Of a stretch of DNA of 64,000 nt, positions 11,779 to 32,449 are shown piece after piece. This DNA comes from a bacterium (GTDB lineage Bacteria > SAR324 > NAC60-12). The position numbers and the translations under genes are program-made. The first letter of the stretch is position 1; the number at the start of each line of letters is the position of its first letter. The notes under the pieces were generated by a model. That model did not search any database, was not told the origin of the DNA, and worked only from the letters and a program-made list of their open reading frames with translations. The stretch lies in contig CBDDTI010000746.1 of NCBI GenBank assembly GCA_965233585.1, positions 448,001 to 512,000 on the forward strand, in the 5' to 3' direction.

Positions 11779-11807
11779 TTGCGTTTTTTTTTGTACATGT
11801 ATATTAT
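11779..11807 (+). promoter_or_regulatory. Putative sigma70 promoter TTGCGT-N17-TATTAT with T9 tract
   Basis: Hexamers and 17-bp spacing read directly; 131 bp upstream of lipoprotein ATG. Confidence 0.5.
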
Positions 11808-11938
11808 ATCGCTAATTATTCTTTAACTCTCATTTAAAAAAGTTTCAGGCAAAGAAAAGTCTTTGAAACCTGCAAGCATGCAGACTTCAAAGACCTTTTG
11901 CAAATCATTTTTCTAACTCCAACATCAAAGGAATCATC

Positions 11939-12517
11939 ATGCAACATCTCATCTTCAACACAAAAAAACTCATCAAACTCACAACAGCAGGTGTTATAGG
12001 TTTAAGTAGTATTACAGGTTGTGGAAGTGGAGATTCAGGTTCTCCCGGAAGTAATAATAATAATAAAGATGGTGAAAAAGTAGAAGAAGAAAAAGTAGAA
12101 ATGTGTAATAATATTTATTCTAAAAGTGATAAAGAAGCTTTTAAAAAAGAATTCAATAAAATAAATAATTCCAGAGTCAATTATATGACTCATTTAGATA
12201 GAAATGGAAATATTTGTGTAGTAGGAGGAGGAGATGTAGAAGTTTTTACTTTTTTGAAAGAATTTAGAGATGCCCCTGAAGAGATTCGTTATGTAGATAA
12301 TATGGGATGTGGCCATCTTCCATTTTCTCCTATCAAGTATTCCAAAAATATTAGGTATTTACTTGATACTAATAGTAGTTCTATAAAAGAAGGAATTAAA
12401 CGATTAAGAGAGGGAATGCATTATTTAAAATTGGAAGATAAGATACAAGAAGATCCAGGATTTGATATTAATTCAACTCAAAAATATATTAAGGTTAGAA
12501 TTTCAAAAGAGTGTTAA
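11939..12517 (+). CDS. Hypothetical lipoprotein, markedly AT-rich
   Basis: Lipobox ITGC followed by Gly/Ser/Asn linker; composition visibly more AT-rich than neighbours. Confidence 0.75.
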   Translation: MQHLIFNTKKLIKLTTAGVIGLSSITGCGSGDSGSPGSNNNNKDGEKVEEEKVEMCNNIYSKSDKEAFKKEFNKINNSRVNYMTHLDRNGNICVVGGGDVEVFTFLKEFRDAPEEIRYVDNMGCGHLPFSPIKYSKNIRYLLDTNSSSIKEGIKRLREGMHYLKLEDKIQEDPGFDINSTQKYIKVRISKEC

Positions 12518-12522
12518 ATGAT

Positions 12523-13896: not shown

Positions 13897-13930
13897 TTTT
13901 TAATTCTCTTAAATCTTTTTTCAAGTCTTT

Positions 13931-14737
13931 TTAAATCTTTTCTAACGTTTGAATGAGATTGACAAACATGTCTTTTAAAATGCCTCTGATGTGTTGTGCT
14001 TTGCTTTCATTGTAATGACGTTCGGTCTCGTCCATGTAATTTGTCTTTGCCATCTCCAGTTGGAGTGCATGAATCTTTTGTTTAGGATTGCCGAAGTTTC
14101 TGGTGATATAGCCCCCTTTGAATGGGTGATTGTGTGAAAACTCATATTGAGAGTCATTGAGGCTTTGCAAAGCCGTTTCTATGAGTTCTTGGCTGGCACT
14201 TTGTAAATCATTATCCCCCAAAATCAAATCAGGGAAAGGAGTGTTTTGAATGGTGGGGACAGATTTTTTGATAGAGTGTGCATCAAACAACAACACGTGT
14301 CCAAATGTTCTTTGGTGTTGTTCCAGCAATTCTTTGACCTTGTTGTGATAGGGCATGTAATAAGCGTCAAGTCGTCTTTGAATCTCTTTTTGTGTTGGAA
14401 TGTTGCTTGGCTGTCTGTAAATCTGATGCCCAAGAAAATCACAATGAGGCACTAAAGAAGTCGTGACTCTCCCATCATTATAAAGTGGTTGGTCGTGTAA
14501 AGAACGATTGAGGTCAATCACATATCTACTATACTTTGCACGAATCATGGTGATTCCCAAATCCCCTACAAAATCATAAAGCCTGTCAACAAACCAATCT
14601 GTGTCATCAGGATTTTGCAAGACTTGGGGCATGTAATCAGCAGCAATATCTTGCGGAAAGAGTTCGCCACAATGGGGGACGCTCACAACGATTGGCACAG
14701 AAGGCGTTGTCGGTTCAATCACATCATAAGGTAACAT
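13931..14737 (-). CDS. hutG: N-formylglutamate deformylase/amidohydrolase
   Basis: SVPH.G, DTDWFVD.LY, SRYVIDLNR, DAHSI, PFKGGYITR, HALQLE. Confidence 0.92.
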   Translation of the reverse strand: MLPYDVIEPTTPSVPIVVSVPHCGELFPQDIAADYMPQVLQNPDDTDWFVDRLYDFVGDLGITMIRAKYSRYVIDLNRSLHDQPLYNDGRVTTSLVPHCDFLGHQIYRQPSNIPTQKEIQRRLDAYYMPYHNKVKELLEQHQRTFGHVLLFDAHSIKKSVPTIQNTPFPDLILGDNDLQSASQELIETALQSLNDSQYEFSHNHPFKGGYITRNFGNPKQKIHALQLEMAKTNYMDETERHYNESKAQHIRGILKDMFVNLIQTLEKI

Positions 14738-14749
14738 ATCAATTTTTGA

Positions 14750-15457
14750 CTAAAGGACGGGTTCTGACACAGAGTAAAGTTTATATCTGGAAGAGGGGTA
14801 ATAAAGTTTGGAATAACTGGCAACTTTGTGATTGCAAAAGACCACTCTTGAGACAGCCAGACAAGGTTCAGATTCTCCTATTTCCAAAGCATGACAGGTT
14901 TCAGGCTGGCTTTTAACTGCTTCTATCGTATTTTCTACTTTTTGTGCAGGACAACGTTTTTGTAAGTATTCATTGGGGGTCATTTTTTTAAAATCTTGCT
15001 GCAGATAGTCAGGGCATAACGCTGGGTTGATATAGCGAACGTCAAAGCGGACTGGAACGTCATTTTCTTGATGTATGATTTGGGAAGTAAAGATTTTCTG
15101 GTCTGTGACAACTCCCATGACTGCAGCAACTTCTACACTGGCTTTGATTTCTTCTAATTTGTTAATTTTGTTGCTGTAACAATTCCCTCGTTGCTGAATC
15201 TCATCAACAATGTTTCTCAGCTCCAAAATGGAGGTCTGCGGCTTTTGAAAGCAAACAAAACTTCCACTCCTTGGAAACCTCCGAATCCAACCTTCTATGG
15301 CTAATTGACTCAATGCTTTATTGACAGTCTGCCTTGTTGTCTTGAATTGAATAGATAACTCACTCTCTGTGGGAATCTTGTCGTTGAACACAAATGTCTT
15401 GTCCAATATCTGTTGCTTAATAAAGTTCTTAATCTGCTTAAAAATCGCTTCACTCAT
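14750..15457 (-). CDS. hutC: Histidine utilisation repressor (GntR HTH + UTRA)
   Basis: IPTESEL..F..TRQTVNKAL..GSGSFV; C-terminal UTRA; hut context. Confidence 0.88.
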   Translation of the reverse strand: MSEAIFKQIKNFIKQQILDKTFVFNDKIPTESELSIQFKTTRQTVNKALSQLAIEGWIRRFPRSGSFVCFQKPQTSILELRNIVDEIQQRGNCYSNKINKLEEIKASVEVAAVMGVVTDQKIFTSQIIHQENDVPVRFDVRYINPALCPDYLQQDFKKMTPNEYLQKRCPAQKVENTIEAVKSQPETCHALEIGESEPCLAVSRVVFCNHKVASYSKLYYPSSRYKLYSVSEPVL

Positions 15458-15522
15458 AAATTTTTTAAATCATAGACAGAATGCAAAGGTTTGTTGTTCG
15501 GTTTTAAAAGTCTTAAATAGAA

Positions 15523-16287
15523 TTAAATAGAATTGACAAATCCACCATCTATGTAGAGAATCTGCCCCGTGATGTAAGATGCTGAGTCAGAACATAAAAA
15601 GACACTTGCCCCCATGAGGTCTTCTAAATTCCCAAAACGTTGCATTGGAATCTTGCTAAGCATTTGGTCTTGCCATGCTTGGTTTTCGTAAAATCCTGCT
15701 GTCATGTCCGTATAAAAATAACCTGGGGCAATGCCATTGACCCGAATCCCAACGCTTGCCCACTCGCTAGACAAGGCTTTGGTCATGCCTGCTAATCCTG
15801 ATTTGGAGGAGGTATAAGGAACGGCAGTAGGTATGCCAACGGCACTGGTCAAGGAACAGACGTTTAAAATGCTTCTCTTGTTGTGTTGGCAAGGCAAATT
15901 GGCAAAGGCACGTGAACAAAAAAATGCCCCTTTTAAATTGGTGTCAAGAATCATATCCCAAAGGCTTTCATCAACGTCTTGACTGGCTTGAACTTGTTCT
16001 ATTCCTGCATTGTTGACCAAGATGTCTATTGCACCAAACTTTTGATGAATCTCTTCAAAAAACTGATCAATCGCTTGTTTGTTTTTGACGTCTAACTCAT
16101 AAGCAGATGCTTTGATGCCCAGTGCCTCAAGCTCTTGCTTCTTCTGTGATAGTTGTTCTAGCTTTCTTCCTGTGATGATGATGTTTGCCCCTGCTTGGGC
16201 AAATGCCGTAGCGATTGCCCCCCCAATGCCTTTTCTGCTACCTGTCATCACAGCGGTTTTTTCTGTTAAATCAATCGTAAAACTCAT
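15523..16287 (-). CDS. SDR family NAD(P)-dependent oxidoreductase
   Basis: TGSRKGIG, NNAG, YTSSK, VNGIAPGYF. Confidence 0.9.
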   Translation of the reverse strand: MSFTIDLTEKTAVMTGSRKGIGGAIATAFAQAGANIIITGRKLEQLSQKKQELEALGIKASAYELDVKNKQAIDQFFEEIHQKFGAIDILVNNAGIEQVQASQDVDESLWDMILDTNLKGAFFCSRAFANLPCQHNKRSILNVCSLTSAVGIPTAVPYTSSKSGLAGMTKALSSEWASVGIRVNGIAPGYFYTDMTAGFYENQAWQDQMLSKIPMQRFGNLEDLMGASVFLCSDSASYITGQILYIDGGFVNSI

Positions 16288-16290
16288 TTG

Positions 16291-17445
16291 TTATAGTTGG
16301 ATTAAATGTTGGTTCAAGTCTTCAAGCCTTTGGCATCGGATCTGTTCCAAGACTTGCTTCAGTTGAACTTTTAAAATGTTGATGGTGTGTGTTCCCCCTT
16401 TTTTCCCAAGGGTTGCAACGCCATACATCAAAGGACGTCCCACTAACACAGCTTTTGCTCCCACTGCCAGTGCTTTGGCAATGTCCACACCAGAGCGAAT
16501 GCCACTGTCAAAAAGAATCGTCATTTGATGTCCATAAGTCTGGCTAATCTCTCCAAGCACTTCCAAAGGGGACAATCCTGCATCAAACTGCCTTGCTCCA
16601 TGGTTGGAAACCACAATGCCATCTGCCCCAATTTCATAAGCACGTTGAGCATCTTGCAGACTCATCACTCCTTTTAAAATCAAAACACCCTTCCATTCAT
16701 CACGGAAACGTTTGAGCAATTCAAAGGTCACCTGTTGTTTGTCTAAAAGGGTTTGAGTGATTTGTAAGTGAGTTGGGTTTTTGGGCAAGTAAGGGGTAAA
16801 GTTTTCAAAGGTAGGCAAGCCATGTTTGAGTGTTTCCAGACACCAATAAGGTTTTTTGATGGCTTGGGCAAACATTTTTGGTCCGACTCTGGGGGGAATG
16901 CCTAAACCATTTTTGATGTCATCAGGGCGAAAAGTGACGCTTGGAATGTCAATGGTATAAACCAACACTTGGTAACCAGCCCTGTGAATCCGTTGCATCA
17001 AGTCTTTTTGAACATCAGGATTTTTGGGTTGGTAAAGTTGAAACCATGCCTTGCCTTCACTCAAACTCGCCGCTTTTTCTAAACTGATGGTCGTCACCGT
17101 GCTAGTAACCACAGGGACATTTGCTTGGACTGCCGCTTGAATGAGGATTTTGGGAGATTGAGGCCACATCATGTCCTGAAATCCGATGGGGGCAACACCC
17201 ATAGGTGCATCATAAACCCTGCCAAAAAGGTCAACTTTGGTCTCTACTGACTCACAAGTTTTAATATAGTGAGGTTCTAACTTGATTTTTTTAAACGCCT
17301 GTTGATTATGCGCTAAACCTTCATCTTCATTGGCGCCTCCTTCCAAATAATCCCAAGCAAATTGAGGCAGTCGCCGATGGGCAACCTTTCTTAAATCTCT
17401 GACGCTAGGGTAGCGGTAATCATACCAAAGTTGGTCATTCATCAA
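16291..17445 (-). CDS. FMN-dependent alpha-hydroxy acid dehydrogenase/oxidase
   Basis: DYLEGGA, WFQLY, LKGV, VSNHGARQ, DSGIRSG, GRP motifs. Confidence 0.92.
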   Translation of the reverse strand: MMNDQLWYDYRYPSVRDLRKVAHRRLPQFAWDYLEGGANEDEGLAHNQQAFKKIKLEPHYIKTCESVETKVDLFGRVYDAPMGVAPIGFQDMMWPQSPKILIQAAVQANVPVVTSTVTTISLEKAASLSEGKAWFQLYQPKNPDVQKDLMQRIHRAGYQVLVYTIDIPSVTFRPDDIKNGLGIPPRVGPKMFAQAIKKPYWCLETLKHGLPTFENFTPYLPKNPTHLQITQTLLDKQQVTFELLKRFRDEWKGVLILKGVMSLQDAQRAYEIGADGIVVSNHGARQFDAGLSPLEVLGEISQTYGHQMTILFDSGIRSGVDIAKALAVGAKAVLVGRPLMYGVATLGKKGGTHTINILKVQLKQVLEQIRCQRLEDLNQHLIQL

Positions 17446-18578
17446 TGTTGCTTGGCTTGGAATTGTTGCGCATATTGACTTGCTAAGTGGATATTGTCAA
17501 TGATGAGCTGGTTCGTCACGTCTGGCAAAGAAGCGTGAATGCCTGTGGAATCTTGATTGATTACAGAAGCAACCTCTTCCCATCTTTCTGATGAAAGGTG
17601 TGCAAGACCCAGCTCTTCCAAAGTGGTAGGCAACCCTAGCTGGGTCAGTAATTCCAACAATTCATCAATTTCTTCATCAGGATAGTTTTCTATCATCATC
17701 AAAACAATCACCCCAAAAGCCACGAGTTCCCCATGATAGAATTGATGAGCCTCTTCAAGTGTAGAAATTCCAATGTAAACTGCATGAGCAGCAGACACAC
17801 CGCAGTTTTCAAAACCCAAGCCACTAAGTAAAGTATTGGCTTCAATGACCTTCTCCAAAGATTCAGTACAAAGATGATGTTCTGCACTCATTTTTGCCTT
17901 GACTCCATGTTGTTTGATGGTGTCATAGCAACTTTGGGCAATCGCCATGGAGGCAAGAGTCGGCTGGTATCCTGTCTGATATGCAGTAGAAACAAAATTG
18001 AATCCTTGCGTTTGATGGTTAGAAAGTGCCTCAAAAGAAGTCGCAATGCAATCGCCCATGCCTGCCACTAAAAACCTAACAGGTGCTTGGGCAATCAATG
18101 CACTATCTACCAACACTAAAGACGGACTTTGACGGCATTGATGGATAGAGTCAAATTGTCCGCAAGCTGAATTGACCACTGCAATCGCACTGGTTGGTGC
18201 ATCGTTAGCAACGATCGTAGGAACAGAGACCATGATGGCTTGGGACTGGTCTGCAACTACTTTGGCACAATCAATGGCTTTTCCACCGCCTATGCCAACG
18301 ATGACACGACTCTTGAAATCATGTGCTTTCTGTCTCAAACGTTCTATCTCCTCCGGACAACACTCCCCACCAAAAACACATCGCTCTGCCTCCATTTTTT
18401 CAGAATGGAATAATTTCTGAATCATGCCTCCCATTTTTTGTTCTATCAACGCATCAATGATGATGAAGATAGGCATGTTCTCACCCAAAAAATCCTTAAG
18501 ATGCTTGGCTAAGGTTTGAATTGCATCTTGACCTTGTATGTATCTGCTAGGACTACCAAATCCTCTATAACTCATCAT
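17442..18578 (-). CDS. Glycerol dehydrogenase-like metal-dependent polyol dehydrogenase
   Basis: SPSRYIQG, GIGGGK.ID.AK, PT....DAP.S, GMGD, AAHA, HGE.VAFG; start placed at MMSYR overlapping the hisD-like stop. Confidence 0.88.
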   Translation of the reverse strand: MMSYRGFGSPSRYIQGQDAIQTLAKHLKDFLGENMPIFIIIDALIEQKMGGMIQKLFHSEKMEAERCVFGGECCPEEIERLRQKAHDFKSRVIVGIGGGKAIDCAKVVADQSQAIMVSVPTIVANDAPTSAIAVVNSACGQFDSIHQCRQSPSLVLVDSALIAQAPVRFLVAGMGDCIATSFEALSNHQTQGFNFVSTAYQTGYQPTLASMAIAQSCYDTIKQHGVKAKMSAEHHLCTESLEKVIEANTLLSGLGFENCGVSAAHAVYIGISTLEEAHQFYHGELVAFGVIVLMMIENYPDEEIDELLELLTQLGLPTTLEELGLAHLSSERWEEVASVINQDSTGIHASLPDVTNQLIIDNIHLASQYAQQFQAKQH

Positions 18579-19893
18579 TAAATGCCTTTTTTCTGAGGTG
18601 AGAGACAGCGTTGGCATGTCCGTCAAATCCTTCATATTTGGCAAAATCATGCACATAAGAAGACACAGAGTCGTATCCTTTTTGAGTCACGTAACCAATG
18701 GAGATGGTTTTGAAGTAATCATACACCCCTAATGCTGATTTGGTACGTGCGGCAAAATGAGTTGGCAACACGGCATTAGGTCCCAAAGTAAAGTTTCCAA
18801 TACAACAAGGAAGATGCTCACCAAGCAAGATTTCCCCAGCATTTTGAATGGCATCTAAATAGTCATAGGGAGTTTTGCTGTGAATTTGCAAATGTTCAGG
18901 TGCGAAGTCATTGACAAAGTTGATGGCATCTTGCATCGTTTTTGTCAGAATGACTCCGCCACTTTGGGAAAGCACTGTCTGGGAATACCCCGCACGTTCT
19001 TCTCCCATCTTCTGCCAAAACTTTGGAATCGCACCTAAGGCTTCTTTGGCAACCCTTTCACAATCGGTCACCAAATAAGCAGAACTATCAGGACCATGTT
19101 CTGACTCTACTAACATATCCAACGCTGCCACTTGTCCATTGGCAGTGTCATCAGCCAAAACAATCGCTTCACTCGGACCTGCCTCAATTCCTGGGTCCAA
19201 AAACTCACTTAACAAGACTTTAGCAGCCAAGACAAAAGGGCTTCCCGGTCCAATGATTTTTTGGCATTTGGGAACGGTTTTTGTGCCATAAGCCACCGCT
19301 GCAACACCAACAGCCCCACCGCATTTATAAACTTTTTCTATGCCTGCTAATTTTGCAGCAACCAACGTAGCAGTGTCTATTTGCCCATCAGGTCCCGGGG
19401 GGGTGATGATGATTGGATTCTTCACACCTGCCACAACTGCTGGGACAGCAGTCATCATCACAACGCTAGGAAACGAACCTTTTCCACGGGGGACGTAACA
19501 TGCCACAGACTCTAGGGAGACAATTTTTTCTCCTGCAAAGACGCCTGGGTGCATCTCTTTAAGCCACATAGATTGGGGCATTTGTGCTTGGTGAAACCGC
19601 TTGACATTGTCAATGGAAAATTTCAAAACCTCCAGCATTCTTGGACTGATTTTTTGGAAAGCTTCGTCAAAGTCTGATTCACTTGCGGCGATGGTTTGTG
19701 TCGTGATTTCAGCGTGGTCTAAATCTTTTGCAAAGCGAACGATGGCATCATCACCTTCTGCTTGAACTGCCTGAATAATCGGTTTCACCTTGTCTTGAAA
19801 ACTTGCTAAATCAAGACTAGAACGTTGTAAAAGTTTGTGTCTATCTGATTCATTTAAATCGGATAATTGATAGTAGTTGATTGTATGAGTCAT
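18565..19893 (-). CDS. Histidinol dehydrogenase homolog (non-canonical subfamily)
   Basis: HisD fold motifs (AGPSE, APEHL, GHANAV) but YVPRGKGSFPS, ESEH, GNF, GPNAVLPT differ from biosynthetic HisD. Confidence 0.85.
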   Translation of the reverse strand: MTHTINYYQLSDLNESDRHKLLQRSSLDLASFQDKVKPIIQAVQAEGDDAIVRFAKDLDHAEITTQTIAASESDFDEAFQKISPRMLEVLKFSIDNVKRFHQAQMPQSMWLKEMHPGVFAGEKIVSLESVACYVPRGKGSFPSVVMMTAVPAVVAGVKNPIIITPPGPDGQIDTATLVAAKLAGIEKVYKCGGAVGVAAVAYGTKTVPKCQKIIGPGSPFVLAAKVLLSEFLDPGIEAGPSEAIVLADDTANGQVAALDMLVESEHGPDSSAYLVTDCERVAKEALGAIPKFWQKMGEERAGYSQTVLSQSGGVILTKTMQDAINFVNDFAPEHLQIHSKTPYDYLDAIQNAGEILLGEHLPCCIGNFTLGPNAVLPTHFAARTKSALGVYDYFKTISIGYVTQKGYDSVSSYVHDFAKYEGFDGHANAVSHLRKKAFNDEL

Positions 19894-20019
19894 ATTGATT
19901 TTTGATGAAATAGAATGAGATATTTAGCAAATTTTTAGCAATAATTAGTCATGTTTGGAAGTGTTTAGTCATTTAACCGTATTGTCAACAATGCCTGCTT
20001 TGTTACCTCCTTTGTAAAA

Positions 20020-20077
20020 ACATAACGTTTAAGTTTATCCACCGAGGAACGACGTCGGCTGGGGCGATTTGTTATAC
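20020..20077 (-). mobile_element. attC-like integron cassette recombination site (58 bp)
   Basis: Minus strand GTATAAC-AAATCGCCCCAGCCGACGTCGTTCCTCGGTGGATAAACTTAAAC-GTTATGT; R'' box overlaps the methylase TAA stop; resembles aadA-type attC. Confidence 0.7.
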
Positions 20078-20983
20078 ACTATAGACTACTCCTTGTTCAA
20101 ACAATGCCAACTGAACTGGATTTTCTTGCTCTACACTTTTAGGTGTTGGAATATCGTAGTTAGTAATAAGAGCTTCAATCATTGGGTTTCTATTTTTTTC
20201 ACTTCCACCAATATGATAAAAATGTTCTCTTGTTAAAACATTAAACTGCCTCCATATTAAATCAATATGCTTATTTTCACGGAAATCATTGTGGTGCCAT
20301 GTTGATAGAATGAATTTACTTTTACTTTTGGATAAAGCATCAAAAAGCAATCTTTCCATGTCTACATTCCACCCATTGAAATAGTCTGTGTGTCTATCTA
20401 TGTAGGGTGGGTCGCAATAAATAATGTCAGAATTTTGTGCTTCTGCAATCGTTTTTTCAAATGATTGACATATCAATTCAATTTTTTTTGAGGACATTAT
20501 ATGGCTAATATGGTCAATCTGATTGGTAATTTTGGTAATGTAAGCTTGCGCAAATCGTTGTGGCTTTCTGCAAAAAGGCGTATTAAAATCACCTTTTCGG
20601 TTAAACCGAATCATTCCATTAAAACTTGCTCTATTCAAAAACAAAAAATCCAGTGGACAATGTTTATTATTAAATCTATCTCTCACTTTATAATAATGAG
20701 AATTACCTTCTTCAAGCAGTAAAGACCCCTCTTTAATAAGATATGATTTAACTCTGCTAGGAGTAATTTCACCATTTGCTATTGCTTGATAAAATTCTAT
20801 TAAGTGTGGGTTAGTGTCACTTAATAAAGCATCATTTGGAATAAGATTAAATCCAACAACGCCTGTTCCCATGAACGGTTCTATCCATCTTCCTCTGAAA
20901 TTTGAAGGAATAATTGAATTTATCCAGGGGACTAATTTGGTTTTTATCCCTTGGGATTTTATGGGAGGAACATGAACTTTCAT
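20072..20983 (-). CDS. Dam-family N6-adenine methyltransferase, M.EcoRV-like
   Basis: [16 protein letters not shown]-terminus as in M.EcoRV; EPFMGTG, DPPY motifs. Confidence 0.92.
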
Positions 20984-21816
20984 TCTATGTTATGACGCTT
21001 TTTAATGATTTTAGTGACATCTCCTTTTCGGTACAATACGAAATCCTCAAGAGAGGTGATTTTCTTGGTCTTGCCATTGCTCTCAAATACAGTGATTTTA
21101 TTGTAATTCATCCAATAATCATCAAACCATTTCTCTCCCAGTTTAGCAAACATTCCATTGCCATTAATAATATCATCAATGTTGTTAACACTCCCAATGT
21201 TAGCTGTATTTCCACTGCCACTCTTATCACTGGCAATACGCCATTTTTCTGCAACAAAAAATTGGAAGTCTTTTATCACTGAAGCTATGGACTGTAAATC
21301 ACTTACCCTATGCGCTTTTGTTTCATCAATAGTTGAGTTATCAACTCTGCTGTAAATAATTCCTAAACAAAAGTGTCCTGAGTATTGACCATAAGGAAAT
21401 TGAATATTCTTAGTACTTGCACGATCTTCAAAATACTTACCATGCGAACCCAAAGTAAAGCCATTGCACAGAAAAGGTTTATTAGGATTTTTATAGGTCG
21501 TTTTAAAGTCCACAGCAAATTTGATTTTTTCATTACCCATTTTCACAAATGAAATATCAGGATAATAGTTTTGGTGATCTGCCAAGACAATCTTGTATTT
21601 ATGCTTCTTGGCAAATTCTATGATTTTGGGAAATAAATGAATTTCCAAAATTTTTGATATGATTTTTGTGTCTGAAGAGATGGTATAAATATTTTGGAAT
21701 ACATCAATAAAGCCCTTGATTGTCCATTGACCATTTGGTGTGCTTATATATTCTTGTAAACCATCAACGAACTCTTTTAATTGCATTTCAAATTCTGTTT
21801 TAATCTTTTGATTCAT
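20980..21816 (-). CDS. EcoRV-family type II restriction endonuclease
   Basis: [40 protein letters not shown] motifs; start at MNQK just inside the attC-defined cassette; 4-nt overlap with the methylase. Confidence 0.92.
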
Positions 21817-21831
21817 GGTAATGATTTCACC

Positions 21832-21889
21832 GCATAACGACAAAATCTAGCAAGCGGGCTAAAGCCCATCTGCTGGAGTCATGTTCTGG
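21832..21889 (-). mobile_element. attC-like site (58 bp) upstream of the R-M cassette
   Basis: Minus strand CCAGAAC-ATGACTCCAGCAGATGGGCTTTAGCCCGCTTGCTAGATTTTGTC-GTTATGC with central inverted repeat. Confidence 0.6.
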
Positions 21890-21946
21890 GCTTGAGTTGA
21901 GATTGACAAAAATTAGATAAATATCGTTATTATTTTATATTTACTT

Positions 21947-22744
21947 TCAATCCTTCTTACCTTGTAAAAAGATTTCCAACCCAACCAGTTTGTCTAAAAT
22001 ATAGATGGTGATGAGTGCCATCACAACATACACGACAGACACAGCCGCTAAATCTGGAGTAATGATAGAACGTATAGAATTATAAATTTGGACAGGAAGC
22101 GTCACAATTCTAGCGTCTGTCAAAAAGAGGCTGACCAAAAATTCATTAAAAGCCAGAATAAACATCAACAATGCCCCCGTGATGATGCCCGGTGCCAATG
22201 CTGGTATGGTGATGGTGAAAAAAACTTGCACGGGATTGGCTCCGCAATTTGCCCCAGCTTCTTCTAACTGCGTGTCTAATTTGTTGACTGTTGCACTGAC
22301 TGTCCAGATCATAAAAGGTAGATTGATGATGCAAAGCCCTAATCCCACAGGAAAGAGGCTGCCCAATATTCTGATTTCACCAAAAAACAACATCATTCCA
22401 ATCCCAGAGACCACCAAAGGAATTGTGAAGGGTAGCAATAAATAGACTTGTAAGGCTTTTTCAAACCTCACTTTGTAACGCATCAATGCTAAGGCACACA
22501 AAGTGCCTGAAGGAATGCTGATGATTGTGCAGATGACAGAGACGTATAAAGTCCGCCAAAAAGCGTCAATAAATTCCTCCAGCTCAAACAGCTTGGCATA
22601 CCATTGAAGGGACAAGCCACGGGGAGGAAACTCCAAAATCTCTCCTGCAGTCAAAGACGCCCCAATGATAATGACAGTAGGCAGGCTTAACATGATGACA
22701 ATGCCAATCACAATGGGATAAAGCACTTTGTTTTGATGACTCAT
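21947..22744 (-). CDS. ABC transporter permease (PotC-like)
   Basis: FPP.GLSLQWY, EAA-like loop LEEAGANCGA, TLPVQIY. Confidence 0.9.
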   Translation of the reverse strand: MSHQNKVLYPIVIGIVIMLSLPTVIIIGASLTAGEILEFPPRGLSLQWYAKLFELEEFIDAFWRTLYVSVICTIISIPSGTLCALALMRYKVRFEKALQVYLLLPFTIPLVVSGIGMMLFFGEIRILGSLFPVGLGLCIINLPFMIWTVSATVNKLDTQLEEAGANCGANPVQVFFTITIPALAPGIITGALLMFILAFNEFLVSLFLTDARIVTLPVQIYNSIRSIITPDLAAVSVVYVVMALITIYILDKLVGLEIFLQGKKD

Positions 22745-23634
22745 GTTCGTTCTCCAAGTAAGGTGCTATGAGTGCCAAAGATTCTGAATAAAATCACGAC
22801 TAAAAGACTCCCAATGGTGACTAATATCATGGAAATTGCTGACCCCAAACCTGCATTAGAAAGTTGGAAAAAGCTGTCATAGACACTGCTTGCTATAAAA
22901 TCATTCTGACCACCTCCTAAAATTTCTGGCATGGCAAAATCTGTTAAGGTGAGTGTAAACACGACAACACAAGCCCCGACGATTCCCGGTTTGGCAAGAG
23001 GAATGATGACTTGGAATAAGGTTTCACCCCAACTAGCCCCTAAACTTTCTGACGCCCATTCTAAGTCTTCACTGATGGCTGTCATTGCTGGAATCAGTAG
23101 CAACACCGCAAAAGGTAGCATGTATTGAATTAAACCAAAAATGACTGCAGGGTAGTTATAAATCAAAGTCAAAGATTCCACCCCAAGAACATTCAAGATT
23201 TGGTTCAAAATGCCTTCTTGACCAAGAATGATAAGCCACCCATAAGCCCTGACGACTTGACCAATAAAAAAAGGCAAAAAAAGTGTGATGAGTAAAAACT
23301 TTCTCATCATTGCAGAACGGCATCTGACCAAGACGTAAGCATAAGGGAATGCAAGAATGAGTGTAAAAAAGGTCACCAACACTGCACCCAAAAAGGTACG
23401 CCAAAGGACTTTTAGATTGGTTGGCTCAAAGAATTCTAAGTAATTGGACAAAGTGTAGGCTTCCTTCAGCCGATAAGTCGCAAGGTCTAGTTCATGTAAA
23501 CTTGCCTCCAAAATATAACCAAGCCCTATGACTAAAACGCCCACTAAAGCAATAGCAGGCAATAAAAAGCCAAAGGGAATCCAAAATTTTTGGTAAGGTG
23601 ATTTAGCAAACATGAACTTTGACCTAACTCCCAA
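22741..23634 (-). CDS. ABC transporter permease (PotB-like)
   Basis: VRAYGW..IL..EG.LN, LEWASESLGAS, P.ILGG. Confidence 0.9.
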   Translation of the reverse strand: MGVRSKFMFAKSPYQKFWIPFGFLLPAIALVGVLVIGLGYILEASLHELDLATYRLKEAYTLSNYLEFFEPTNLKVLWRTFLGAVLVTFFTLILAFPYAYVLVRCRSAMMRKFLLITLFLPFFIGQVVRAYGWLIILGQEGILNQILNVLGVESLTLIYNYPAVIFGLIQYMLPFAVLLLIPAMTAISEDLEWASESLGASWGETLFQVIIPLAKPGIVGACVVVFTLTLTDFAMPEILGGGQNDFIASSVYDSFFQLSNAGLGSAISMILVTIGSLLVVILFRIFGTHSTLLGERT

Positions 23635-23644
23635 TCAGTTGACT

Positions 23645-24766
23645 TTATCCTTTGAAGATTTTGTTAAATTCTCTAAACCAAATCGGCTGATTTTCAACAA
23701 GGACAGGGGAAGGCACGCTGACCAACTTTGCAAAATCTTCAGGCTTGGTTGGATAAGAGGGGTCTCCCACTAAGTCAGCAGGGGGTTCAATTCCCGGATA
23801 AACAGGAGGTAAGCCCAGCAAAGAACACCATTTTTGTTGAGCATTTTTGCTGATTGCAAAGTTGACTAACTCCTTTGCCCAATATTCTTCATTTTCAGGC
23901 AGTCCTTTTGGAATCCAAAGCCCATCAGTATCTACTTTGCAACCCTCCTGTGGAATTGTCCACTGGACGTCAATCCCTTTTTGTTTGGCGGCTCTAGCAT
24001 TGACTGAAATGGTGCAAGCCACGTCAATCTCACCTTTCTGAAACCACGTGGTAAAGTCAGGGTCTTCACCAAGCAAGGGTTCATTTTGCTTGAGCAAGCG
24101 ATAAAAGTTGTAGCCTGCCTCCATATTTTTAGGAATGTCTTCAAAAGTTCCACCGCCTGCAATCACAGCAATCGGGTTAAAGCCGATACCGTCATCGTAG
24201 AGAGCAGAACGTCTTTTGAATTTGGGATTTAATAAAACATTCCAAAATTTAGGAGGACCATAAGGAAAGGCTTCTGTTCGGTAAGCACAAACATAGACAT
24301 AGGCATAAGTATTGACCAATGGGTAGCCTGTTAAGCCCTTAGGCTTTGCCAATGGGAGTAAATTTTTAAGATTGGATAAACCGCTTAAATCCACAGTCGC
24401 ACCCCTTAATGCTGAAATAGTGGCATTCGTGGTGGTATCCCAGTTGACATGAATAGGGGGAACTCGTCCCTGGTCCACAGCCGCCCAAATCTTAGGCTTA
24501 ATTTCATTGTCTTCTGTAAAATCTAAGCGGACTTTAACTCCTGTTTGCTCAGTGAACGGGTCAGTCACTCCTGCCTTCAGAGCTTCTCCCCACGAGCCAC
24601 CCCATGCACGAATGATCAACTCCTTAGGTTTTCTAGGTGCTGCGCTTAAAATAGAGGGCATGACCATTGCCCCAGCGGCAGTCACGGCGACACCTTTGAC
24701 AAAATCCCTTCGGTCTATTTCATTAGTTGTAGCTTCTTTTTGATTTGACAAATTAGATGTTTTCAT
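23645..24766 (-). CDS. Polyamine/PotD-type solute-binding protein with Tat signal
   Basis: DRRDFVK twin-arginine signal; WGGSW..A....V..PF...TGV; PQEG. Confidence 0.88.
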   Translation of the reverse strand: MKTSNLSNQKEATTNEIDRRDFVKGVAVTAAGAMVMPSILSAAPRKPKELIIRAWGGSWGEALKAGVTDPFTEQTGVKVRLDFTEDNEIKPKIWAAVDQGRVPPIHVNWDTTTNATISALRGATVDLSGLSNLKNLLPLAKPKGLTGYPLVNTYAYVYVCAYRTEAFPYGPPKFWNVLLNPKFKRRSALYDDGIGFNPIAVIAGGGTFEDIPKNMEAGYNFYRLLKQNEPLLGEDPDFTTWFQKGEIDVACTISVNARAAKQKGIDVQWTIPQEGCKVDTDGLWIPKGLPENEEYWAKELVNFAISKNAQQKWCSLLGLPPVYPGIEPPADLVGDPSYPTKPEDFAKLVSVPSPVLVENQPIWFREFNKIFKG

Positions 24767-24830
24767 AATCTTTTCTCTTGTTAGGATAAATAAAAATACA
24801 ATTAAAAATGGGTTAAAAAAATCAATATTG

Positions 24831-25940
24831 TTATGTCACAGCACCCTCCTTTGACAATAGTGGAAAGAGATGAATGTCTTTTGCATGACAACCTAACTGC
24901 ACACTCGCCCCAATTTCTAAAAGTGTATGCTGGTGATGTAGCAAAACCGACAAAGATTGACCGCAAGCAGAGATTTTATAGACGATTCTGTCCCCTTCAA
25001 AAATCATCTGTTCTACAAGACCTTGCCAGACATTGTCAAATGGCTGATTCTGTGTGGAATCCTCCCCTGTGACGATGTGCAAATTTTCTGCTTTGATGTT
25101 GCAAAACAAGGGGTCTCCTGCCTGAACGTTTTTAAGCAGATTTGTAGATTTCATTTCAGTCTGGAAAGCATTGAATCTGATACATGTTTGGTCAATAGAC
25201 TGAATGTGAGCTTGAAAGGTATTGCTTAACCCTATAAAATTTGCCACAAAAAGCGTTTGAGGTTTTTGATAGACCGCAGTAGGTTTGTCATGCTGTTCTA
25301 CTTGAGCCTCATTCATTACCACGATATGGTCTGACATGACCAGAGCTTCTTTTTGATTGTGTGTCACATTGATTGTCGTGATTCCTAATTCCTGTTGAAT
25401 GCGTCTAAATTCCAGTTGCATCTCTTCTTGGAGTTTTTTGTCTAGTGCTGACAAAGGTTCGTCTAACAACAACACATCTGGACTAAAGGACAAGGCTCTT
25501 GCAATGGCAATACGTTGTTGTTGACCCCCAGAGAGTTCATGGATTCTTCGGTCTCCTAAGCCTTCCAGACGGACTAACTTCAAATAATGTTGAACAATTT
25601 CAGGAATGTCCTGTTTGGGAAATTTCCGCATTTTCAAAGGATACGCAATATTTTGTGAAGCGTTCATGTGTGGAAACAAAGCCAATTTTTGAAACACCAT
25701 GCCGATAGAACGACGATGCGGAGGAAGGTTTTCACTAGACTGTCCATCAATCAGAATATGCCCCTCATCAGGAGAATCAAACCCTGCAATAATTTTGAGC
25801 AGTGTCGTTTTACCACAGCCACTAGGTCCAACAATCGTCAAGAACGTACCTTGGTCAACTACAATACTGACGTTTTTTAAGGCTTGCAACGTCCCAAAAG
25901 ATTTAGAGATGTTTTGAATTTCAATCATTTTACATTTCAA
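24831..25940 (-). CDS. ABC transporter ATP-binding subunit (PotA-like)
   Basis: GPSGCGKT, LSGGQQQR, LLLDEPLSALD, C-terminal TOBE-like region. Confidence 0.93.
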   Translation of the reverse strand: MKCKMIEIQNISKSFGTLQALKNVSIVVDQGTFLTIVGPSGCGKTTLLKIIAGFDSPDEGHILIDGQSSENLPPHRRSIGMVFQKLALFPHMNASQNIAYPLKMRKFPKQDIPEIVQHYLKLVRLEGLGDRRIHELSGGQQQRIAIARALSFSPDVLLLDEPLSALDKKLQEEMQLEFRRIQQELGITTINVTHNQKEALVMSDHIVVMNEAQVEQHDKPTAVYQKPQTLFVANFIGLSNTFQAHIQSIDQTCIRFNAFQTEMKSTNLLKNVQAGDPLFCNIKAENLHIVTGEDSTQNQPFDNVWQGLVEQMIFEGDRIVYKISACGQSLSVLLHHQHTLLEIGASVQLGCHAKDIHLFPLLSKEGAVT

Positions 25941-27265
25941 CCATGATGAGCGTTTTCAGATTTAATATATTCAAAAAACTTGACAAAGTCATCACTTCCT
26001 TTGAGGGGTTTTTGTGCCGCTTTTATAGCTTGGCAGAATCCGATGAGGGAGCTTGTTGGATTGTGTGATGAATCAGGAGTAACCAATAAATTCATCACTA
26101 AGATAGGACAGGTAAAAAGTGCCAAACGGACGGTTCTTTCAAATGTCTCAAACGGAATGTCTTCTTTCAAAGCCTTGTACAATGGCTTCCAAAAATTCAC
26201 TGCTTTAGAAGTCAAAAATCCTTCTCTAATGTCGCTTAGAATATAGTTTGTTTCCACACAAATTTTATCTTGTTCTACACAAGCCTTGACGTCATAGTGC
26301 TGACTAAAAAAGTCGGGTTCGTAAAGCCAAAAAGGGTGTGCAAAGATGTTATGAAAAGTCGCTTTCACTTCTGCTAATAAGGCAGGAATTTGGGCATTGG
26401 CAAAAGCTGGGTCAAATAGACTAAAGGTCTGGTCTTCATGCAGCCAGACGTTCGCATGGTGGGCATCGCCATGTGAGTTAAAAGCAAAACCGGGCAACAG
26501 TGCCTGAGGGGTCAAATCAACAAGGCAGGCTTCTAAACAACTTTTTAAAGTTTCAGGATAATCTATTTGGTTAATAGACCACTTCAAATCAATCAACTCC
26601 TCAAAAGGAAGACGAAGGACTTCTCCATTGAAACCTTGAAAGACAGCCGTTTGATTTTTGTAAAATGACTGAATCCGCCCTCCGATTTCTTCATAACAAG
26701 TAGGAGGTTTTGACAAATCATTGACTAAACGGTGATAAAAAAGTTGGAAAATAGGTTGATGGATTCCTTCAATCCCTTGAGTTTGATGTAATGTCTTCAA
26801 AGCAATTTTGGAAAAGTATTGGTCTATTTTTTCTTCAATCGCAATCAATTCATTTGCATTGAAAGAGCGATTTTCTTTTGAGGACTTACCTTTTTCATAG
26901 TCTGAACAAACATCAGCAAATCTGGAGTCTTGAATACGTTTGTAAATGACAATTTGTTGGTTTGGTGTCGTGTTTGAAAATAAAGGTTCTTGGACTGGAT
27001 AGCCTGCCTCTTTGAGAACCTTGGCTTGATAATACTCGCTGACTTGTTCCTTTTCATTTTCTTCTGTATGGAACTTAAAAAAATACTCGTTAGCATGGTG
27101 GTCGCTCATCAAACCATTGACAGAATTGAGGCTATACTGATCCTGATTGATACAGAGATTTTGCACTACAAGAGGTGTGGTGTCCTGAATCAAATGTTTC
27201 AAAGCTGAAGTTGCACCTGAAAGGTCTTGGTTTTTAATCAACTGATGAATGCTTTGCGTATCCAT
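25937..27265 (-). CDS. APH/choline-kinase-like phosphotransferase fold protein
   Basis: YFFK (VAIK-like), HGDAHHANV catalytic loop, downstream LFDP. Confidence 0.65.
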   Translation of the reverse strand: MDTQSIHQLIKNQDLSGATSALKHLIQDTTPLVVQNLCINQDQYSLNSVNGLMSDHHANEYFFKFHTEENEKEQVSEYYQAKVLKEAGYPVQEPLFSNTTPNQQIVIYKRIQDSRFADVCSDYEKGKSSKENRSFNANELIAIEEKIDQYFSKIALKTLHQTQGIEGIHQPIFQLFYHRLVNDLSKPPTCYEEIGGRIQSFYKNQTAVFQGFNGEVLRLPFEELIDLKWSINQIDYPETLKSCLEACLVDLTPQALLPGFAFNSHGDAHHANVWLHEDQTFSLFDPAFANAQIPALLAEVKATFHNIFAHPFWLYEPDFFSQHYDVKACVEQDKICVETNYILSDIREGFLTSKAVNFWKPLYKALKEDIPFETFERTVRLALFTCPILVMNLLVTPDSSHNPTSSLIGFCQAIKAAQKPLKGSDDFVKFFEYIKSENAHHG

Positions 27266-27289
27266 GTTTATTTGGTTTTTTTAGAAACT

Positions 27290-28812
27290 CTAAAGAATCC
27301 CATAATCGTTTAATTTTCCAGACATCAGCAATTCATAGATGGCAGAAATATCATCAGCAAAGTAGCGGTCTTTCTGATATGAAGGTACTTTTGCACGAAT
27401 GATTGCTTTTTTTTCTTCCAACACCGCACTAGTTTTGAGGGGTGTTAGAAAATCTAATCCTTGGGTTGAGGCTAATGCTTCAATCGCTAAAATATGAGCC
27501 ACATTTTCATTGATGCTTTGCAGACGCCTTGCGGCATAAGTCGCCATACTGACATGGTCTTCTTGATTGGCTGAGGTCGGAATGCTGTCCACGGTGCTTG
27601 GATGCGCCAGTGATTTGTTCTCACTTGCCAATGCGGCGGCGCTGACTTGAGCAATCATAAACCCAGAGTTTAACCCAGAGTTTTGCACTAAGAAGGGAGG
27701 ATGTCCGCTTAAATGTTGGTCAATCAACATCGCAACTCTCCTTTCTGACATACTGCCAATTTCAGAAAGTGCAATCGCCATCAAATCAGCTACCATGCCA
27801 ACAGGTTCTGCATGAAAGTTGCCCCCAGAGATAATTTCTTGAGTCTCATCAAAAACAAGAGGATTGTCAGACACTCCGTTTGCTTCTCTCATCAAGATTT
27901 GACCCGCATGCCTTAAATTATCCAACACTGCACCCATGACTTGAGGTTGACACCTCAGACAGTAGGGGTCTTGTACCCGCTGGCATACTTCTCCTTGATG
28001 GCTTGACCAAATAGGGCTGTCTTTCAACAAATGACGCAAATAAGCAGCAACTTCTTTTTGCCCCTCTTGATTTCTGACATGGTTGATGTTCTCACTAAAA
28101 GGAGCATGCGAGCCTTTGATAGATTCCAAAGTCAACGCCCCTACGACCAATGCAGAACCAAAAAGTCGCTCTGCAGTCAAAAAAGCTGAGAGGGCTAGGG
28201 CATTAGAAACTTGAGTTCCGTTGATCATGCCCAGACCTTCTTTGGCACTGAGAGTCAAAGGAGAAAGCCCAACTTGTGCTAATACTTCTTGAGAGTCTCT
28301 TGTTTGACCTTGATAGCAAACTTTGCCAATTCCTATCAAGGCACAAGTCAAATGTGCAAGAGGGGCTAAGTCGCCAGATGCTCCAACAGACCCTTTTTCA
28401 GGAATGATTGGATAAATTTTTTGATTGTAAAACTCAATCAATAAATCTATCAACTCCTTTCTGACCCCAGAATAACCAGCAGCTAAGCTGCAGGCTTTGA
28501 GTACCAAAATCAATCCAACAACTCTGTCATCTAGCGGCTGACCCACACCTGCAGAATGAGAAAGAATTAAATTTTTTGTAAAATACTTAAATCTTGCTTG
28601 GCAATTTTGGTGTTAGCCAATAATCCAAAACCCGTATTGATTCCATACACTGCCTTGTCAGATTCTGCTTTTTGTTGCACCAGCTCATAAGCTGCTTGGA
28701 TTTTGCCGTCATTTTCATCAGACAGCTTCACTGGTGTTTGATGAAAGTAAATGGCTTTCAGTTGTTCTATGGTAACGTCTTGAGGTTTGAGGGTGAGTTT
28801 AGCTGTGTTCAT
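27290..28812 (-). pseudogene. hutH: Histidine ammonia-lyase split by a 1-nt frameshift
   Basis: N-part VYGINTGFG (28567..28812) and C-part GSVGASGDLAPLAH, QDPY.LRC, GGNFH, ANQEDHVSM (27290..28546); adding one A to the A6 run (T6 at 28572-28577) restores LQKNLILSHSAGVG. Confidence 0.88.
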
Positions 28813-28906
28813 TTGAAATTAGAAAAAGAATTGAGGTAGAAAAGTAGTGATGTTTGGCATGAACTAAAAGCGATATTTGGTCTAATTCAAGACCCAAAAT
28901 ATAGGA

Positions 28907-30487: not shown

Positions 30488-30499
30488 AGTATTTATATG

Positions 30500-32396: not shown

Positions 32397-32415
32397 GTTA
32401 TTTTCTATCCTGCAA

Positions 32416-32442: not shown

Positions 32443-32449
32443 ATTGATG

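Follow-up and report, generated by a model that had tools for sequence, protein, structure and literature searches.

A recurrent kinase, importer and dehydrogenase gene cluster inside the hut array of a SAR324-related bacterium and its possible role in histidine utilization

Nine genes of a putative catabolic module lie within a hut array

We analyzed a 64,000-nucleotide stretch of DNA from a SAR324-related bacterium (assembly GCA_965233585.1, contig CBDDTI010000746.1, positions 448,001 to 512,000; hereafter the window), in which nine genes lie physically inside an array of histidine utilization (hut) genes, with hutH on one side and hutC-hutG-hutF on the other, all on the same strand (Table 1). 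These genes, referred to here as the module, encode a kinase-like protein, a four-component PotABCD-like ATP-binding cassette (ABC) importer, a HisD-like dehydrogenase, a GldA-like iron-type alcohol dehydrogenase (Fe-ADH), a flavin mononucleotide (FMN)-dependent L-alpha-hydroxy-acid dehydrogenase (FMN-DH) and a short-chain dehydrogenase/reductase (SDR). Gene families were called with Pfam and NCBIfam profile searches of the open reading frames (ORFs) of the window, and the minus strand carries every ORF from 12523 to 35417. All nine module genes are full length relative to their family models, co-directional with the hut genes and closely spaced: 4-bp overlaps join the kinase to PotA, PotB to PotC and the GldA-like gene to the FMN-DH, whereas gaps of 3, 10 and 24 bp separate the FMN-DH from the SDR, the binding protein from PotB and hutH from the kinase, respectively, and two further intergenic gaps in the array measure 64 and 65 bp. 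The original prediction, made from the bare DNA, of nine intact same-strand genes with abutting or overlapping ends between hutH and hutCGF is therefore borne out by the ORF and family calls (three 4-bp overlaps, other gaps of 3-65 bp). Its count of nine holds for the module and fails for the interval, which contains eleven ORFs, including a restriction-modification (R-M) pair that had been overlooked.

The R-M pair, a Dam-family methyltransferase and an EcoRV-family endonuclease, consists of two intact ORFs with a 4-bp overlap that are placed between potC and the HisD-like gene. The GC content of this cassette is 0.31-0.35, compared with 0.41-0.48 in its flanks, whereas the remainder of the module matches its surroundings, and the distance from potC to the HisD-like gene is 2053 bp in the window but only 17-78 bp in 31 of 31 related pairs from other genomes (described below). 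Given its low GC content and the widened gap, the pair is best explained as a later insertion into the module, and the EcoRV-type cassette is outside the pathway considered here. No convincing repeats flank the insert; a 12-nt near-repeat at 20012 and 21962 is likely due to chance.

The hutH gene is frameshifted, with 81 codons running from the ATG at 28812 to a stop and the rest of the enzyme lying in another frame. The frameshift occurs at a run of six A residues near 28570-28580, where one extra A would keep the frame open, and may be either a homopolymer assembly error or a real pseudogene. An adjacent histidine ammonia-lyase (HAL) paralogue reads GSVGVGD where hutH reads GSVGASGD, and therefore lacks the Ala-Ser-Gly triad that forms the methylidene-imidazolone (MIO) cofactor. 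Promoter and terminator scans of positions 12000-31000 found terminator-like sites at the level of chance (16 versus 16.6 expected), leaving internal transcription units unsupported, and a search for HutC operators with a consensus sequence yielded 20 matches versus 21.9 expected, none informatively placed. An Rfam scan of the whole window returned no family at gathering score.

The module recurs in other genomes

A scan of 185,579 species genomes with an alignment of kinase homologues yielded 360 confirmed loci. The counts given here are based on the best 80, each comprising up to 10 kb on either side of the kinase (with a length of 19 kb or more in 64 of them), onto which the window proteins and conserved neighbours were mapped by tblastn with at least 50% query coverage. 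The HisD-like gene (at least 50% identical) was present in 71 of the 80 loci, the SDR in 67 and a zinc-type alcohol dehydrogenase (Zn-ADH; PF08240/PF00107) in 51. An ABC importer was found in 63 loci and was either of the PotD type (30 loci) or of the NMT1/SsuA type (33 loci), the two never occurring together (0/80). A GntR/UTRA regulator (36/80), the FMN-DH (24/80), a HisC-like aminotransferase (20/80), a class-III aminotransferase by or near the kinase (11/80) and a TyrB-like aminotransferase (4/80) were also found. Since this set of genes is found again at 80 loci in other genomes, its arrangement in the window reflects more than chance.

Several other neighbours were tried as members of the core and rejected, each being found in one to four of the 80 loci: TauE, Rrf2, HAD, LutB, GlcD-like, 2-oxoglutarate-dependent oxygenase, GNAT and DMFA2-like genes. 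For example, an Rrf2 regulator, a CysA-like ATPase and TauE/SafE follow the kinase (at about 11200-15500) in three Dongia loci (L060, L061 and L077) and in none of the other 77, and HAD phosphatases flank the HisD-like gene and the kinase in two loci (L012 and L070).

Many of the carriers are plant-associated (Rhizobium, Sinorhizobium, Shinella, Pantoea and Serratia). In the window, UvrC (45689-47569) has its best named relatives in metagenome-assembled genomes (MAGs) of the SAR324 cluster (51-52% identity; metagenome proteins reach 73-80%), and the module proteins are closest to those of Alphaproteobacteria. This pattern of similarity suggests that the module was horizontally acquired in this SAR324-related lineage. 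The module had been predicted to be coherent and undescribed; it does recur elsewhere, and a full-text literature search covering mainly freely accessible papers found no description of this cluster, no imidazole-glycerol, imidazole-acetol or histidinol kinase, no imidazole lactate dehydrogenase and no catabolic HisD clade besides HpsN.

The HisD-like protein belongs to a distinct clade

The HisD-like protein of the window passes the hisD model TIGR00069 (422.8 bits, cutoff 243.8) and is nearer to HisD structures (4g07, 243.6 bits) than to HpsN structures (8wwe and 8v35, 180-190 bits). It carries the motifs ESEH, GNF, NAVLPT, APEHL and PRGKGSFPS, whereas QAEH, GDY and NHVLPT are found in all three canonical HisD structures aligned with it, so the changes noted originally (QAEH to ESEH, GDY to GNF and NHVLPT to NAVLPT, with APEHL kept) are confirmed by the alignment. 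In the Medicago enzyme, MtHDH, the zinc ligands are Gln299, His302, Asp401 and His460*, the catalytic pair is Glu367/His368, Glu455* hydrogen-bonds the imidazole, and His368 and the His408 carbonyl contact the substrate oxygen (excerpts of PMC5585171). When mapped to MtHDH by alignment, the zinc-ligand positions of the window protein are Glu, His, Asn and His; the substitutions are thus Gln299 to Glu, Asp401 to Asn and His408 to Ala, whereas both zinc histidines, the catalytic Glu-His pair and the equivalent of Glu455 are kept.

These features are nearly invariant among the module HisD-like proteins (n=72, the window protein and 71 from related loci). PRGKG[SA]FPS, E[AS]EHG, N[FY] and Ala at the position of the His in NHVLPT are each present in 72 of 72, and YEGFxxH and PEH[LM] in 71 of 72. 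For a broader comparison, the best 150 representatives were drawn from 1.84 billion proteins, those shorter than 380 residues were dropped, and the remaining 139 were aligned with the window protein. The canonical Gln/Asp/His signature is found in 98 of the 140 aligned rows and Glu/Asn in 29, the remaining 13 having another combination. A FastTree tree of these rows separates the 29 Glu/Asn rows and seven others from the 98 canonical rows and the other six with 98% SH-like (Shimodaira-Hasegawa-like) support. In addition, one locus from a Hyphomicrobiales MAG (L004) contains a canonical HisD (QAEH, GDY, NHVLPT) about 10 kb from the module copy, the pair of genes lying at 2915-4090 and 14327-15600. 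Because of the fixed ligand changes, the tree and this double copy, we assign the protein to a distinct, old and diverse clade, here called EN. The earlier view that the HisD homologue is unlikely to be an ordinary biosynthetic enzyme therefore stands, given the separate clade, the changed zinc ligands and the nearby canonical copy in L004, and the protein is predicted to be an NAD-dependent four-electron alcohol-to-acid dehydrogenase.

In HpsN, a G-R-Y-A/S-H motif supplies His126, which binds the sulfonate together with Lys353, and a 2-hydroxy substrate is handled with Gln and Asp as zinc ligands (excerpts of PMC11382572). At the place of this motif the window protein reads G-K-G-S-F, the positions of His126 and Lys353 are both Phe, and Phe or Tyr follows the zinc-site Asn in the module HisD-like proteins, where HpsN has Lys353. 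Judging from its sequence, the protein is not an HpsN. The extra Arg/Lys in PRGKGSFPS was considered as a mark of an anionic (phosphorylated) substrate and rejected in part: Lys or Arg at the fourth position is common in canonical HisD (PGGK.., PGGR..), and only the Arg at position 2 is specific to the EN clade.

Two EN-clade representatives are fused to an imidazole glycerol-phosphate (IGP) dehydratase (IGPD) domain. Among the best 120 relatives of one fused member, 25 carry both HisD-like and IGPD domains and 111 carry the Asn/Ala signature. The fusions (P0245, P0260 and P0393-P0416) are 648-677 aa long, and those with a named source come from candidate division KSB3 and Alicyclobacillus. 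The IGPD domain in these proteins is full length but scores only 96-112 bits against HisB cutoffs of 189-443 (4/4 tested); since it lies below every HisB cutoff, it is considered a divergent paralogue rather than a housekeeping enzyme. No IGPD homologue was detected at E<=1e-3 in the 80 loci or in the window. A gene called hisD on the R. leguminosarum plasmid pRL8 (pRL80041; PMC7105596) could not be tied to the EN clade, and the excerpts considered of PMC3333776 make no reference to it.

The kinase-like protein represents a family without a Pfam model

Neither Pfam at E<=10, PF01636 included, nor NCBIfam at E<=1e-5 contains a family that matches the kinase-like protein, and a PDB sequence search with the kinase family found no relative. 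The designation of this protein as a kinase is therefore based not on any profile match but on its fold and on an HxDxxxxN-type catalytic-loop motif, HGDAHHAN, which is followed downstream by FDPAF; across 27 aligned homologues, H265, G266, D267, N272 and D285 are invariant. There are 850 homologues, the best 48% identical, and a precomputed PF01636 match is recorded for two among the 120 listed. An AlphaFold2 model built on the homologue alignment (mean predicted local distance difference test score, pLDDT, of 91.8) has a bilobal kinase fold. A Foldseek search of the PDB with this model gave 47 matches at E<=0.001, and the best 40 are small-molecule kinases of the APH type and their relatives, including macrolide 2'-phosphotransferase, methylthioribose kinase, APH(9), PsiK and the choline kinase LicA (probability 1.00 for all but two, at 0.99 and 0.93; template-modeling, TM, scores of 0.25-0.45 overall and 0.3-0.45 for the kinases named here). 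The ESM Atlas neighbours are likewise APH-type clusters. The modeled structure thus supports assignment to the small-molecule kinases of the APH/protein-kinase-like fold. The protein shares this fold and the HxDxxxxN-type loop with the APH, methylthioribose kinase and choline kinase family but matches no Pfam or NCBIfam model and no PDB sequence.

The importer and the remaining dehydrogenases

The importer shares the four-component architecture of the PotABCD spermidine/putrescine importer and resembles it at the family level, but all four subunits score below the Pot equivalog cutoffs (PotA, 346 bits versus 482; PotB, 145 versus 348; PotC, 121 versus 326; PotD, 34 versus 582), and an SsuA-type importer substitutes for it in 33 of the 80 modules. 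The ATPase is 48-56% identical to the ATPases of PotD-type modules in related loci. The binding protein has a twin-arginine motif, DRRDFVKG, consistent with its originally predicted Tat-dependent export, and is the most conserved part of the module, with 293 of 359 residues (82%) identical to its counterpart in a Rhizobiaceae MAG (L001), compared with 46% for the kinase. Its PDB relatives are distant (PotD and the agropine and mannopine binding proteins, 28-40 bits).

The GldA-like protein matches the glycerol dehydrogenase subfamily model NF006941 (396 bits, cutoff 336) from residue 31, and its true start is probably near 18570. From its family it is predicted to be an iron-type dehydrogenase of alcohols (1,2-diols or hydroxy-ketones). 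Although the original prediction counted this gene as part of the module, it is outside the conserved core, since the slot after the HisD-like gene that it occupies in the window is filled by a Zn-ADH in 51 of the 80 loci; Fe-ADH genes adjoin the module in Rouxiella (L079) and Serratia (L069). Models of the LldD type score below cutoff on the FMN-DH, whose homologues in other loci are 28-37% identical. In Faunimonas pinastri (L062), LutB-like and LutC-like (LUD domain) genes at 11527-14237 follow the kinase in place of the FMN-DH, and hutU, hutG and hutH lie further along. The SDR homologues are at least 49% identical and mostly adjoin the kinase.

Just past hutF, on the same strand, lies a gene for an ELFV-family amino-acid dehydrogenase (10425-11456), which scores best, though still below cutoff, on the model of the tryptophan dehydrogenase ScyB (351 bits versus 600). 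The 80 loci lack a counterpart of this gene, which might be a candidate for the keto-acid-to-amino-acid step that is missing from the module.

Module copies elsewhere are associated with histidine genes

The tie to histidine is based on four lines of evidence that are independent of gene order in the window: the regulator, the aminotransferase, the hut neighbours and the IGPD fusions described above. At least one histidine-themed neighbour was found in 44 of the 80 loci. The HutC equivalog cutoff (220 bits) is passed by all 27 of the in-module GntR/UTRA regulators that were tested (222-299 bits; 36 in total). The HisC-like aminotransferase passes the hisC model TIGR01141 (288.7 bits, cutoff 276.55), and the TyrB-like alternative is an aromatic-amino-acid transaminase. 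Finally, hutH, hutU or hutI lies within 10 kb in nine loci, which represent nine genera of Alpha-, Beta- and Gammaproteobacteria and Actinobacteria and have differing arrangements. For example, an importer, the HisD-like gene, a Zn-ADH, the SDR, the kinase, hutU and hutI run in one direction in Pseudomonas matsuisoli (L009), a Steroidobacteraceae MAG has the order hutF-hutC-hutU-hutH-hutG...HisD-like-kinase, and Rouxiella silvae (L079) has hutH-hutU-HisC-like-FMN-DH...Fe-ADH; the hut enzymes are co-directional with module genes in L009, L074 and L079. As a rough estimate, for a hut operon spanning a few kb in a genome of several Mb, chance would place hut genes next to the module in well under one case in 80. 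Physical linkage to hut in other genomes had been set beforehand as a test of the original prediction and proved, in its strict form, to be the exception, since hut enzymes are missing within 10 kb in 71 of the 80 loci. The association with histidine and hut itself recurs (HutC-type regulators in 36/80 loci, aminotransferases in 24/80, and the IGPD fusions).

As in Hut operons under HutC control, the window module lies in an array of hutU...hutH...hutC-hutG-hutF, and HutC equivalogs are found in modules elsewhere, but none of the nine module genes is a described hut gene. A comparison of HutC regulons lists, in the excerpts considered, hut enzymes, hutD, HutH paralogues, the his operon (in two species) and transporters, and none of the module genes (PMC5343134). 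The module is also accompanied by paralogues of the late histidine biosynthetic (his) pathway, namely HisD in the window, HisC in 20 of the 80 loci, IGPD in 25 fusions and HAD phosphatases in two loci, and the HisD-like protein has retained both the catalytic Glu-His pair and the Glu that contacts the imidazole. It differs from canonical HisD in its separate clade, its zinc ligands and the Ala that replaces His in NHVLPT, and the IGPD domains fall below the HisB cutoffs. Because the module genes are grouped with an importer, a kinase and a HutC-type repressor, they are not part of a his operon.

A proposed route from imidazole alcohols to histidine

We propose, with slightly more confidence than doubt, that the nine-gene module is one copy of an accessory cluster that occurs widely and feeds the Hut pathway, in which an imidazole-bearing three-carbon (C3) alcohol is imported and converted to histidine, which is then degraded. 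The substrate, the order of the steps, the substrate of the kinase and histidine as the product are what we infer, and we place far less weight on any single substrate or step order than on this general statement. The ABC importer would take up the alcohol, for which imidazole glycerol, imidazole acetol, 3-(imidazolyl)propane-1,2-diol and imidazole lactate are candidates; each is related to a late intermediate of the histidine pathway by loss of phosphate or by reduction. Interconversion of the C2 alcohol and the ketone could be the task of the SDR together with another alcohol dehydrogenase (GldA-like in the window, Zn-ADH elsewhere), the HisD-like enzyme would oxidize the terminal CH2OH to a carboxylate with two NAD+, and the FMN enzyme would oxidize the resulting alpha-hydroxy acid to imidazole pyruvate. 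An aminotransferase, whose gene is in the module elsewhere but not in the window, would then form L-histidine for breakdown by HutH, HutU, HutI, HutF and HutG. For the kinase, the most likely role is to trap a hydroxy-ketone or a polyol in the form of a phosphate ester (imidazole acetol phosphate or imidazole glycerol phosphate), which could enter a route of dehydratase, transaminase, phosphatase and HisD.

All parts are from known enzyme families, and the pathway logic has a known model in the catabolism of 2,3-dihydroxypropane-1-sulfonate (DHPS). In the DHPS pathway, HpsO (an SDR) and HpsP (a Zn-ADH) invert the C2 alcohol through the ketone, and HpsN oxidizes the primary alcohol to a hydroxy acid, which is followed by oxidation and transamination (excerpts of PMC11382572). 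As in DHPS catabolism (HpsN, EC 1.1.1.308; Cupriavidus and the Roseobacter group), a PF00815 enzyme lies beside a PF13561 SDR in the module, and a Zn-ADH of the HpsP families (PF00107/PF08240), present in 51 of the 80 related loci, gives way to an Fe-ADH in the window. By analogy, a diol would be converted to an alpha-hydroxy acid, an alpha-keto acid and an amino acid. The differences are zinc ligands of Glu/Asn rather than Gln/Asp, an extra kinase, and a context of hut, HutC, HisC and IGPD rather than of sulfo-lyases. Under this first template, imidazolyl-propanediol or imidazole acetol would be converted through imidazole lactate and imidazole pyruvate to histidine. A second template would follow the end of the his pathway by way of the kinase, from imidazole glycerol or imidazole acetol to its phosphate and then, through IGPD, a HisC-like enzyme and a phosphatase, to histidinol and histidine. 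In agreement with this route, IGPD occurs in the fusions, HisC-like genes accompany the module, and L012 and L070 have HAD phosphatases. The window itself would supply the kinase and the oxidative branch only, with the enzyme for the keto-acid-to-amino-acid step encoded elsewhere. It is known that histidine shuts down the biosynthetic his operon through his attenuation. Dedicated paralogues under HutC control would make sense because the product, histidine, represses that operon. The originally predicted import and oxidation of an imidazole- or amino-polyol for delivery to hut is upheld in its gene-context links, whereas the imidazole nature of the substrate is still a reading of the sequences.

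Several observations weigh against this proposal. A real frameshift in hutH would bar histidine from entering Hut in this window, where the HAL paralogue lacks the MIO triad. HisC-like, TyrB-like, IGPD-like and HAD genes are all absent from the window, so that the last steps would depend on enzymes encoded outside it, 71 of the 80 loci have no hut enzyme within 10 kb, and the kinase is present in every locus by construction, since the loci were anchored on it. The Gln-to-Glu and Asp-to-Asn swap of zinc ligands has no explanation, given that HpsN keeps Gln and Asp on a 2-hydroxy substrate. In addition, an SsuA-like (sulfonate-type) binding protein is found in half of the modules and TauE near three Dongia loci, class-III aminotransferases by the kinase in some loci suggest an amino-alcohol logic, and the proposed substrates lack an established natural source.

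Alternative explanations for the module

We regard it as improbable, though worth weighing, that the substrate lacks an imidazole and is instead an amino alcohol or amino polyol, for example serinol or an aminopropanediol, which the kinase would phosphorylate, a pyridoxal phosphate-dependent enzyme would transaminate or relieve of its phosphate by elimination, and the HisD-like enzyme would oxidize to an amino acid; placement within hut would then reflect shared nitrogen-catabolic regulation and no shared intermediate. The kinase fold does group with choline, ethanolamine and other alcohol kinases, a class-III aminotransferase lies by or near the kinase in 11 of the 80 loci, the importer is PotD/polyamine-like, and HAD phosphatases flank the HisD-like gene and the kinase in L012 and L070. 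This explanation nevertheless leaves unaccounted for the HutC-equivalog regulators (27/27 tested), the IGPD fusions, the kept imidazole-contact Glu and the co-directional hut enzymes in L009, L074 and L079. A histidine product, which would explain the hut link, would also arise if the import were of a histidine conjugate, such as an Amadori or opine-like sugar-histidine compound whose sugar part is destabilized or activated by the kinase and processed by the dehydrogenases so that histidine is freed. Fructosamine-3-kinases share the APH-type kinase fold, many of the carriers are plant-associated, and the binding protein distantly resembles agropine (32 bits) and mannopine (28 bits) binding proteins, but it resembles PotD just as closely. 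None of the loci examined has an amadoriase, deglycase, glycosidase or sugar-phosphate enzyme in its module, and what the IGPD fusions and HisC-like genes implicate is instead the C3 side chain of histidine intermediates. A conjugate thus seems distinctly unlikely, and for the glycated-histidine variant of the original prediction no evidence was found.

The resemblance to DHPS catabolism could also be literal, with a C3 sulfonate or phosphonate diol oxidized to a hydroxy acid and a keto acid and then converted to an amino acid, and with the module placed in hut by chance. Its enzyme families are those of HpsNOP plus sulfolactate dehydrogenase and a transaminase (excerpts of PMC11382572), 33 of the 80 modules have an SsuA-family binding protein, a TauE sulfite exporter lies by the module in L060, L061 and L077, and the source is a marine SAR324-related lineage. 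We consider this highly unlikely, however: both sulfonate-binding residues, His126 of the G-R-Y-A/S-H motif and Lys353, are absent, being Phe, and the clade is nearer to HisD than to the HpsN structures; only three closely related loci have TauE; no kinase takes part in DHPS pathways; and the HutC, hut, HisC and IGPD links are unexplained. Moreover, no sulfo-lyase (SuyAB, CuyA or Xsc) turned up in general Pfam scans of the window and annotated loci, although no dedicated search was made. It is harder still to credit that the HisD-like gene is simply the ordinary hisD of this genome, with unrelated catabolic genes as neighbours at an insertion-prone spot in hut. The protein passes TIGR00069, no other hisD is visible within the 64 kb, and an R-M cassette did insert at this spot, but the gene set recurs in 80 loci, the zinc ligands differ in 72 of 72 proteins, L004 has a canonical HisD near its EN copy, and the GC content of the module, unlike that of the cassette, equals that of the flanks.

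Other features of the window

Two tandem paralogous 7TMR-DISM receptors with adenylate/guanylate cyclase domains (700 and 706 aa) are encoded at 257-4740, and a 779-aa Kelch-repeat protein at 37812-40151, the most GC-rich stretch of the window (0.49). Further along are a 1535-aa fusion of carboxyltransferase (ACCA/Carboxyl_trans) and biotin carboxylase domains (48829-53436) and a 625-aa SBBP-repeat/fn3 protein (54677-56554). The genes of the hut array and module are listed in Table 1.

Table 1. Genes of the hut array, the embedded module and the inserted R-M cassette, with positions in the window and the matches on which the assignments are based.
Feature	Position	Strand	Basis
hutF	12523-13896	-	TIGR02022 476.3 bits, cutoff 413.05
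hutG	13931-14737	-	TIGR02017 232.7 bits, below cutoff 278.75; PF05013 211.7 bits
hutC	14750-15457	-	TIGR02018 236.6 bits, cutoff 220
SDR	15523-16287	-	PF13561/PF00106
FMN-dependent L-alpha-hydroxy-acid dehydrogenase	16291-17445	-	PF01070 374.8 bits
GldA-like Fe-ADH	17442-18656	-	PF00465; NF006941 396 bits
HisD-like dehydrogenase	18565-19893	-	PF00815 440 bits; TIGR00069 422.8 bits
Dam-family methyltransferase (R-M cassette)	20072-20983	-	PF02086 163.5 bits; TIGR00571 214.6 bits
EcoRV-family endonuclease (R-M cassette)	20980-21843	-	PF09233 395.1 bits
PotC-like permease	21947-22744	-	PF00528
PotB-like permease	22741-23634	-	PF00528
Periplasmic solute-binding protein	23645-24766	-	PF13416; twin-arginine signal
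PotA-like ATPase	24831-25940	-	PF00005 and TOBE_2
Kinase-like protein, 442 aa	25937-27265	-	APH fold and motifs
hutH (histidine ammonia-lyase), frameshifted	27290-28812	-	TIGR01225 571.9 bits (27290-28546)
HAL paralogue, MIO-less	28907-30487	-	TIGR01225 274.6 bits, below cutoff 539
hutXWV-like OpuAC-type ABC importer	30500-33460	-	Pfam/NCBIfam
hutU	33732-35417	-	Pfam/NCBIfam
hutI	35443-36705	divergent	Pfam/NCBIfam

Implications for histidine utilization

More broadly, the module may belong to a mobile, HutC-controlled "shadow" late-histidine pathway, present in several phyla, that scavenges imidazole C3 compounds and rebuilds histidine for Hut, a speculative extension that we think is possible but rather unlikely. 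Its parts would be the EN-clade HisD, the divergent IGPD, the HisC-like transaminase, the new family of APH-fold kinases and the diol and hydroxy-acid dehydrogenases, and its substrates would be leaked or environmental imidazole-glycerol, -acetol, -propanediol and -lactate, amounting to an undescribed cross-feeding route. The binding protein, 82% identical to a Rhizobiaceae protein although the module is in a marine lineage related to SAR324, points to horizontal spread as well as strong selection on ligand recognition.

If the proposed route is correct, it would give a function to a kinase family that has no Pfam model (850 homologues and 360 genome loci) and to a large clade now annotated as histidinol dehydrogenase (111 of the best 120 relatives share the signature), and it would add a new entry branch to the textbook Hut pathway. 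It would also represent a reuse of the logic of the DHPS pathway for an imidazole substrate and a concrete case of bacteria recovering excreted biosynthetic intermediates.

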